The notes under the pieces: generated by a model
The model's input: only the letters and a program-made list of their open reading frames with translations
Told to the model about the DNA's origin: nothing
The model's database searches: none
Part shown: piece by piece, positions 13,723 to 15,169 of the stretch
Numbering within the stretch: the first letter of the stretch is position 1
Layout: every line of letters begins with the position of its first letter
Translations under genes and position numbers: made by a program
NCBI GenBank assembly: GCA_045805065.1
Contig: JBJMMA010000235.1
Coordinates: forward strand, 1-15,169
DNA: 15,169 nucleotides
Source of the DNA: Bdellovibrionia bacterium
GTDB taxonomy: Bacteria; Bdellovibrionota; UBA1018
Direction of reading: 5' to 3'

Positions 13723-14754
<1,032 letters not shown>

Positions 14755-14783: not shown

Positions 14784-14816
14784 AAAAAGCCTCCGTCGCA
14801 AGACGGGGGCTTTTTT
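14784..14816. terminator. intrinsic terminator after mreB, probably bidirectional
   Basis: AAAAA-GCCTCCGTC-GCAA-GACGGGGGC-TTTTTT: a 9-bp stem with a GNRA loop, a T tract on the plus strand and an A5 tract that gives a U tract on the minus strand. Confidence 0.9.
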
Positions 14817-14831
14817 GTTTTCGGGACCTAC

Positions 14832-14860
14832 TTATCAACAAAGTTATCCACTTATCCACA
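14832..14860 (+). promoter_or_regulatory. cluster of three co-oriented DnaA boxes
   Basis: TTATCAACA (14832-14840), TTATCCACT (14844-14852) and TTATCCACA (14852-14860, perfect R-box). Confidence 0.6.
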
Positions 14861-14937
14861 CGGCTTTAAAACGCACCAAACCCAGCAGCCTCACATCAGT
14901 GCGGGGCTCCGGTTACGCTGTACCCAGAGCACTTACC

Positions 14938-15087
14938 TCACAATTGCCTTAAGTAGTGAGACACTAAAGCAGCCAGAAAAACCAGAAACCTAGCTAAGAC
15001 AATGAGATACCAGGTTTTCTGTTTAAGTTTTTCCAGCCTGATCCGATAAAGATAATAATCACGGTTGGGACCGTTCTTATTTCTCAT
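14938..15087 (-). CDS. small basic membrane peptide, 49 aa, candidate type I toxin
   Basis: Manual translation MRNKNGPNRDYYLYRIRLEKLKQKTWYLIVLARFLVFLAALVSHYLRQL*. Preceded by AGAAAGGAGGTGATCC, with GGAGG 7 nt from the ATG. Ten K/R versus two D/E, and a ~20-residue hydrophobic stretch (W26-L46). Confidence 0.75.
   Translation of the reverse strand: MRNKNGPNRDYYLYRIRLEKLKQKTWYLIVLARFLVFLAALVSHYLRQL
15023..15049 (+). promoter_or_regulatory. sigma28 (FliA)-type promoter, antisense to the small ORF
   Basis: TTAAGTTT-N11-TCCGATAA versus the enterobacterial consensus TAAAGTTT-N11-GCCGATAA: 7/8 in each box with exact spacing. Confidence 0.7.
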
Positions 15088-15088
15088 A

Positions 15089-15121
15089 GGATCACCTCCT
15101 TTCTTCACAGGGAAAGGAGGT
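15089..15121 (-). promoter_or_regulatory. extended Shine-Dalgarno sequestered by an upstream anti-SD hairpin
   Basis: Minus strand ACCTCCTTTC-CCTGTGAA-GAAAGGAGGT-GATCC-T-ATG: a 10-bp perfect stem covering the whole SD core. Confidence 0.8.
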
Positions 15122-15154
15122 AGTTCCTTCTACGCTGCCGGGTTTGGCTGGCGA

Positions 15155-15160
15155 ATCATA
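15155..15160 (-). promoter_or_regulatory. candidate -10 box for the small-ORF mRNA
   Basis: TATGAT on the minus strand puts the TSS at about 15148-15149, where the 5' arm of the long-range pairing begins. The -35 would lie outside the window. Confidence 0.45.
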
Positions 15161-15169
15161 AAAGCAAAA

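Follow-up and report, generated by a model that had tools for sequence, protein, structure and literature searches.

The right-hand end of contig JBJMMA010000235.1 from a Bdellovibrionia bacterium, which was analysed over its whole length of 15,169 bp and is called the window below, carries on its minus strand a gene for a 49-aa peptide (MRNKNGPNRDYYLYRIRLEKLKQKTWYLIVLARFLVFLAALVSHYLRQL, 14938–15087; ATG at 15087, stop codon TGA at 14940–14938), and this gene proved to belong to a gene family that has not been described before, is restricted to one lineage and occurs in multiple copies. What was observed is real and lies far beyond chance. In its predicted architecture the locus resembles the mRNA of a type I toxin, and it is a member of no known toxin family. 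Our best explanation, to which we give an even chance of being right, is a sigma-54-driven, translation-locked module of the type I toxin kind, in which the RNA that encodes a small hydrophobic peptide would be folded over its own translation start.

A multi-copy family of small hydrophobic peptides

A preliminary description of the window, made from the sequence alone, had noticed a cationic peptide of 49 aa with one hydrophobic helix, read from 15087 to 14938. The gene was found at this place, and the comparison with relatives revealed that it is a real, conserved, multi-copy gene. In a single-protein six-frame search of 61 related genomes, including the window's own (G000), matches at E < 1e-3 were obtained in 14 genomes, the window's own among them, with up to 24 matches in one genome (G019) and 18 in another (G003), several of them in tandem; the expectation that a tblastn-type search would uncover multiple copies in relatives was thus borne out. 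From 59 further stretches of relatives, 64 tblastn matches and 61 open reading frames (ORFs) were collected. The length of 56 of these 61 ORFs is 41–58 aa, and almost all of them start with ATG. The family consensus reads M(K/R)N..YYxYRIxLEKLKQKTWxLxVLA(K/R)xLxFLxxLVxxYLRQ, with an invariant Arg17. The entropy at the three codon positions (0.98, 0.80 and 1.19, the third positions being the most variable) is a coding pattern; substitutions in the hydrophobic half preserve hydrophobicity, and both the ORF length and the position of the stop codon are conserved.

The window peptide consists of a cationic N-terminal half and a single C-terminal hydrophobic helix. Its top 19-aa hydropathy window has a value of 2.16 and starts at residue 28 (for the family, the median of the best such window is 1.88, beginning near residue 23), the net charge on the N-terminal side of the hydrophobic stretch is about +6, and AlphaFold, run with the family alignment, gave one helix spanning residues 8–48 (pLDDT 85). 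The C-terminal half is predicted to be a membrane-spanning segment with conserved Lys/Arg. With 49 aa and one predicted transmembrane (TM) helix, the peptide falls within the small hydrophobic peptides (<60 aa) by which toxin–antitoxin (TA) systems of type I are recognized.

A profile search of a large protein collection returned 116 clusters, all unnamed or "hypothetical", and neither AapA nor any other toxin name occurred among these relatives. The named organisms among them were all Bdellovibrionota or Oligoflexia, so the earlier guess of a Bdellovibrio-like lineage was about right. In an even sample of the phylum comprising 301 genomes, the family was present in 14, all from four families of the window's order, and absent from the other families; as sampled, it was found only in one order of Bdellovibrionota. 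No family match was obtained by tblastn in plasmid and phage collections. Even with E values of up to 10 allowed, the window peptide matched no Pfam family, none was common to more than 1 of 39 members, and the ESM Atlas returned unnamed clusters only (score 0.80). Tandem arrays of two or three units were seen at L043, L046, L086 and L089 (G019), L038 (G018) and L049 (G003), where the units lie ~390–450 bp apart, each with its own sigma-54-type promoter.

Predicted fold of the transcript

The ORF is preceded by an extended Shine–Dalgarno (SD) sequence, GAAAGGAGGTGATCC (15089–15103, minus strand), located 7 nt ahead of the ATG, which we take to be the complement of the 3′ end of the 16S rRNA. 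This SD, already pointed out in the preliminary description, recurs in nearly identical form in almost all of the 61 copies. A hairpin hiding the SD and a pairing between the 5′ and 3′ ends of the mRNA had been read from the window as well, and both are upheld by the family. The anti-SD strand CTACCTCCTTTCCC (15110–15123, minus strand) belongs to a 12-pair leader hairpin at 15094–15121, while the long-range closing helix H1 is formed by a 5′ arm at 15133–15153 and a 3′ arm at 14872–14889 (both on the minus strand), the latter followed by a short U run (14868–14871). The H1 duplex has an energy of −33.7 kcal/mol and is part of the minimum free energy (MFE) fold. For the RNA 14868–15153(−) as a whole, the MFE is −120.2 kcal/mol (z = −7.2 against dinucleotide shuffles, 0/200 of which were as good).

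Covariation was assessed in an alignment of 28 full transcripts from the 45 that met an energy and length filter. RNAalifold recovered the closing helix and the SD hairpin from these homologues, and the ribosum-scored consensus contains 76 pairs in 10 helices. Pairing was kept in 86.6% of 2122 cells, compared with 38–55% when the partners were slid; both sides have changed in 40 of the 76 pairs, and 0/500 shuffles equalled the observed scores. H1 (14 bp in the consensus) is 97.7% paired, with changes on both sides in 8 of its 14 pairs, and the SD hairpin (helix 3) is 83.7% paired, CCUCC/GGAGG being replaced by CCCCC/GGGGG in five sequences. Mutually exclusive small helices (a hairpin inside the 5′ arm, and GUAG with CUAC of the anti-SD strand) covary too, which suggests that the RNA can adopt alternative conformations.

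The start codon and the SD spacer pair with UAUCGGAUC, that is, with codons 14–17 and the first base of codon 18 (TATCGGATCA at 15039–15048, minus strand). Codon 16 ends in T in 51/51 copies despite the varying residue, and the Tyr/His alternation at this codon gives either a G-U or a G-C pair with the G of AUG. Arg17 is encoded by CGG in 46 and by CGT in 5 of the 51 copies, never by AGR, and the invariant U-C-G of UAUCGG pairs with the invariant start region in 28/28 sequences. Taken from aligned sequences, this covariation supports the closing helix, the anti-SD hairpin and the helix between start codon and codon 16. According to the folding model, the SD core has an unpaired probability of 0.006 in the window RNA (median of 45 copies, 0.007; paired in practically every copy) and is paired already in the nascent RNA, and the unpaired probability of the AUG falls from 0.77 to 0.11 after ~20 codons have been transcribed. 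The TATCGGATCA segment would lock initiation a second time, and its fold would keep the mRNA translationally inert.

Elsewhere in the consensus fold, the LEKL codons are paired with the FFL codons, and the 3′ untranslated region (UTR) forms two hairpins, one of them with a conserved loop, GGGUACAGC. In the window this hairpin lies at 14906–14930 (minus strand) with the loop GGGTACAGCGTAAC, and in helix 10 of the consensus, to which it corresponds, 4 of 6 pairs have changed on both sides. The stem covaries among the homologues and the loop, GGGUACAGC(R)UUAAC, is conserved; no partner for this loop was identified. Rfam gave no match over 14868–15155 at E up to 10, and none at the gathering score for 10 homologous loci.

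The sense promoter and the extent of the unit

Of the 54 copies with enough upstream sequence, 45 carry GG-N10-GC at a distance of 85–120 nt upstream of the ATG, where the genome background leads one to expect 0.012 per such interval. The sense promoter of the family thus appears to be of the sigma-54 type, its typical form being YGGCAY-N5-TTGCT some 12 nt before the 5′ arm. The window, which takes up the whole contig, shows the −12 element only, TTGCT at 15163–15167 (minus strand), which aligns with the −12 of the homologues' promoters, and the −24 element would lie off the contig. Transcription is predicted to start near 15152, and rpoN is present in the window's genome. A −10 box at 15160–15155 had been proposed in the preliminary description; this TATGAT, which sits between the −12 element and the predicted start, is conserved in no homologue and was ruled out as a sigma-70 −10 box.

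In a minority of copies (k-mer counts 6–8/51), TCCGA...TCGGA palindromes lie 70–100 nt upstream of the promoter. Paired palindromes of the GTCCGAnnnTCGGAC type were seen at L005, L027, L039, L043, L046, L054, L058 and L061, among others, and are absent or unrecognisable in many other copies. From their sequence and position, they are plausible sites for a sigma-54 activator.

A bidirectional terminator had been thought to bracket an RNA of ~365 nt. The intrinsic terminator is present (14784–14815, both strands), but the conserved unit stops at the 3′ arm, which gives ~285 nt. An intrinsic terminator ~70–140 nt past the 3′ arm was found in only 4 of 45 copies, the window among them, and for this reason the terminator was rejected as a family feature and is not counted in the unit. 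It lies 3′ of mreB (plus strand, 13723–14754), to which it is common, and is probably mreB's own.

Candidate antisense promoters

Inside the ORF, the plus strand carries a sigma-28 (FliA)-like motif, TTAAG-N15-CCGATAA (15023–15049; TTAAG at 15023–15027, CCGATA at 15043–15048), with a putative start near 15056 and directed across the start codon and the leader. The motif had been recognised in the preliminary description, and its position is kept in the family. A FliA-driven antisense RNA from ~15056 would cover the start codon, the SD and the leader, and it would neutralise the mRNA while the cell is motile, making the locus a full type I TA system; we regard this as a serious possibility, somewhat short of an even one. 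According to the excerpts of PMC3627812, the FliA consensus of Bdellovibrio bacteriovorus is TTAAG-N16-CCGATA and occurs in 92 of 140 attack-phase promoters, and the TTAAG and CCGATA of the window equal this consensus exactly, as a match of sequence with a spacer of N15. Among 51 non-redundant copies, the motif stands at the same N15 position without mismatch in 8, with one mismatch in 15 and with two in 21, that is, with at most two in 44/51, while a sense-strand control reached two mismatches at best, in 6/51; these counts come from homologous copies and are not independent trials. For the Leu codon that supplies one base of TTAAG, CTT is used by 24 of 46 copies, compared with ~8% at other Leu positions, and this codon lies within an unpaired internal loop of the sense fold. 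Both TTAAG and the region that an antisense RNA would cover are retained by all five deletion variants described below. The N15 spacing is also found upstream of two flagellin genes and of one gene that we take, from its N-terminal sequence, to be PilT-like, all in the window's genome, which has two FliA-like sigma genes.

Other observations stand against these arguments. The −10 of the motif is the complement of TATCGG, the partner of the start region in the sense RNA, so that the sense helix and the invariant Arg account for its invariant bases, and conserved Lys-Leu-Lys codons have the −35 as their complement. Because coding and sense-RNA pairing can explain the conservation of the motif, the antisense RNA is unproven. 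Nor was the degenerate motif enriched genome-wide (40 matches vs 45 in a reversed-sequence control), and no conserved antisense terminator was found in the few upstream sequences inspected by eye, the window having weak candidates only. A sigma-70-like motif, TTTCCA-18-AATAAT (15030–15059, plus strand; 9/12 matches, weak −35), overlaps the sigma-28-like one. Its −10 is the complement of conserved Tyr-Tyr codons, xATAATA following CCGAT in most copies, and, judged from the aligned copies, it is as explainable by coding and sense structure as the sigma-28-like motif.

The genome holds seven flagellin genes, flagellin and FliA-like genes being located on C143, C171, C201 and C249. TWAAG-N15-CCGA within 160 nt upstream was seen at two flagellin genes only.

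Deletion variants without the hydrophobic helix

A search by nhmmer with the transcript profile detected five copies, L082, L083, L084 and L085 in G003 and L087 in G184, that are devoid of the part coding for the hydrophobic helix. They are 169–242 nt long, have five different right-hand junctions, and keep the sigma-54-type promoter, the H1 arms (−25 to −38 kcal/mol), the SD hairpin, the ATG and ~25 codons; the detection favoured copies that retain the N-terminal part, and those of G003 may be related by descent. Such deletions would fit selection against the hydrophobic half together with retention of the RNA scaffold or of whatever the other strand encodes across its 5′ half. The shortened copies may be loci in decay, or they may serve as orphan antitoxin genes or as regulatory RNAs.

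Weighing the explanations

In the explanation that we favour, an activator-dependent sigma-54-type promoter would give rise to an RNA of ~285 nt, and this message would be stable and translationally locked because its ends (joined in a helix of 14–18 bp), the strong SD buried inside the leader hairpin, and the SD spacer with the start codon (held by codons 14–17 and the first base of codon 18) are all paired. Translation would then require unlocking, either by 5′ processing that strips off the anti-SD strand or by the 16S 3′ end, which might invade the hairpin via the GAUCC extension. An antisense RNA from inside the ORF may provide a further block. Once made, the peptide would damage or depolarise the inner membrane, as analogy with hok, aapA and tisB suggests.

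Several points weigh against this interpretation. Toxicity is argued for indirectly, from how small and hydrophobic the peptide is, from the architecture of its mRNA, from the number of copies and from the deletion variants. In most type I toxins the hydrophobic helix is N-terminal, that of the family being C-terminal. The preliminary description had not recognised the peptide family, and indeed nothing consistent was found in Pfam, NCBIfam and PADLOC, nor any sequence similarity to known toxin families. Among the copies from the window's genus, the three full ones whose upstream sequence is available read GAGCAT or GAGTAT at −24; as the window's own −24 is missing, the sigma-54 dependence of its copy is uncertain, and the promoter may be weakened or altered in this genus. 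No conserved terminator or clear RNA 3′ end was found among 45 copies, and nhmmer revealed no assembled copy in the window's genome beyond the window's own. The 28 aligned transcripts were hand-picked, with near-duplicates and copies with long leader insertions removed. Finally, in silico removal of 20, 45 or 70 nt from the 3′ end leaves the SD paired (median unpaired probability 0.002–0.003), so that a 3′ activation of the hok/aapA1 type is not predicted. Of the hok/Sok and aapA/IsoA layout attributed to the locus at the outset, the 5′–3′ closure and the hidden SD were supported. The lock would therefore be local and double, and the closing helix more likely guards the ends than controls the SD.

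The likeness to known systems is partial in each case. In tisB, dinQ, zorO and shoB, the primary transcript is likewise inert and the SD region structurally blocked; all four mRNAs are activated by 5′ processing, tisB and zorO being the models for the 5′ unlocking proposed above, and the simplest route to a free SD in the family would be a 5′ removal of this kind. Unlike here, the antitoxins of these systems are divergently encoded and not overlapping, the promoters are LexA-controlled or of the sigma-70 type, and there is no such 5′–3′ closing helix. With hok/Sok the family shares an fbi-like pairing of the mRNA ends and a silent, stable mRNA, and also, if the chromosomal hok of Escherichia coli is included, the occurrence as multi-copy chromosomal loci, many of which are inactivated in the case of hok. 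It differs in having no Hok_Gef homology, in its promoter type and in that a 3′-processing switch is not predicted. Vibrio Qrr resembles it as a set of several paralogous short units with their own sigma-54 promoters and presumably one activator, but Qrr RNAs are non-coding and Hfq-dependent, whereas the family is coding and far more structured.

A longer list of common traits links the family with aapA/IsoA of Helicobacter, as far as this system is presented in the excerpts of Arnion et al. (2017; PMC5416894) and Masachis et al. (2019; PMC6733600): the peptide is small and located in the membrane, the mRNA is inert by folding in its full-length form, its 5′ and 3′ parts interact over a long distance, hairpins of the 5′ UTR and within the ORF sequester the SD, the chromosome holds several copies, and there is a promoter, here a candidate, for an antisense RNA opposite the 5′ part. 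In contrast to aapA, whose ORF element pairs with the SD according to the same excerpts, that of the family pairs with the spacer and the AUG. There is no sequence similarity between the two; the peptides of the family, at 41–58 aa, have the hydrophobic helix at the C-terminus and not at the N-terminus, the promoter is of the sigma-54 type, the hosts are not Helicobacter or Campylobacter, no opening of the SD by 3′ truncation is predicted, and the antisense RNA is a candidate only.

Next to the full TA system discussed above, the peptide could be a regulated, non-toxic small membrane protein, which we consider rather unlikely. The copies would then form a sigma-54 regulon of tail-anchored peptides, acting for example as envelope-stress or developmental modulators of a membrane complex; no antitoxin would exist, and the locked mRNA would merely tune the amount or timing of the peptide. 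A sigma-54 promoter implies signal-dependent induction, many type I toxins being transcribed constitutively, and the long, conserved, cationic amphipathic N-terminal half (YYxYRIxLEKLKQKTW) resembles an interaction surface more than it does a minimal pore former. The want of a proven antitoxin and of similarity between known toxins and the family point in the same direction. However, it would be unusual to find a regulator in as many as 24 copies per genome, dispersed or in tandem and each under its own promoter; deletion has repeatedly removed the TM-coding part (five variants), and the double lock on initiation combined with the 5′–3′ closure is, to our knowledge, a hallmark of toxin mRNAs (PMC5416894, PMC6733600).

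It is quite improbable that the locus is mainly a regulatory RNA, that is, that the scaffold serves as a small RNA or dual-function RNA and the peptide is secondary. This would account for the deletion variants, which retain the closing helix, the leader and the hairpins of the translation initiation region within 169–242 nt and have no TM region, for the conserved 3′-UTR loop, which is left without an explained partner, and for the strong constraint at synonymous sites. It sits badly with 56/61 intact ORFs of conserved length and stop position, with the hydrophobic character of substitutions in the hydrophobic half, and with a near-perfect SD and an ATG in nearly all copies.

That the locus is a miniature mobile repeat, its arms being terminal inverted repeats, or that its motifs coincide by chance, has next to no probability: inverted arms do enclose a dispersed repeat of ~285 bp whose copies often end contigs, but the arms covary rather than keep their sequence, which rules out the mobile repeat, the promoter lies outside them, the context (33 flanking ORFs at 11 loci) is not transposase-like, and conservation excludes chance.

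Genomic surroundings of the copies

Unrelated housekeeping genes flank 11 copies, and no shared neighbour gene or activator was found among the 33 flanking ORFs of these 11 loci; as far as gene context can tell, the unit seems to be a stand-alone module. In the sister genome G001, which belongs to the same genus, the mreB locus (L076, G001:C87) carries two degenerate copies, both with disrupted C-terminal halves, and an extra ORF of 375 aa, with no family assigned, between mreB and the nearest peptide copy.

Between the 3′ arm and the mreB terminator, the window contains three 9-mers (TTATCAACA, TTATCCACT and TTATCCACA; 14832–14860) that resemble what we take to be the DnaA box consensus. One other cluster of at least three boxes within 60 bp exists in the genome, a dense array on C221 (~17.3–19.0 kb) that looks like an oriC, and C201 carries a motif of 28–30 nt nearly identical to the DnaA-box stretch of the window. 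A search for upstream-repeat-like motifs near contig ends did not find the contig that continues the window.

Implications

Full-text searches of the literature brought up neither an account of such a locus in Bdellovibrionota nor a type I toxin driven by sigma-54. As far as we know, hardly any modules of the type I toxin kind have been described beyond Proteobacteria sensu stricto, Campylobacterota and Firmicutes, since annotation misses both their peptides and their RNAs. Many copies of the family sit at contig ends, and the window contig and several others end inside a copy; such repeats break assemblies.

The family provides a natural alignment of more than 60 copies, rich in covariation, of an mRNA that would be translation-locked, and its natural deletion variants separate the RNA scaffold from the peptide. 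The promoter logic is unusual, with an activator-dependent sigma-54 that may be opposed by sigma-28. A bolder reading, which we think distinctly unlikely, would have each genome hold up to two dozen suicide or dormancy peptide genes that are triggered by sigma-54 and its activator, doubly locked and restrained by FliA-driven antisense RNAs, with the TM-less copies serving as orphan antitoxin or decoy genes. If it were true, a single signal could set free membrane-active peptide in a burst once the transcription of the motility phase ends, and the logic of type I TA systems would be newly wired to two alternative sigma factors; the idea of a life-cycle switch, raised in the preliminary description, is speculation. 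If the peptide is toxic, the family would open a way into dormancy, lysis or phage defence in a lineage that is largely uncultured and has been little studied.

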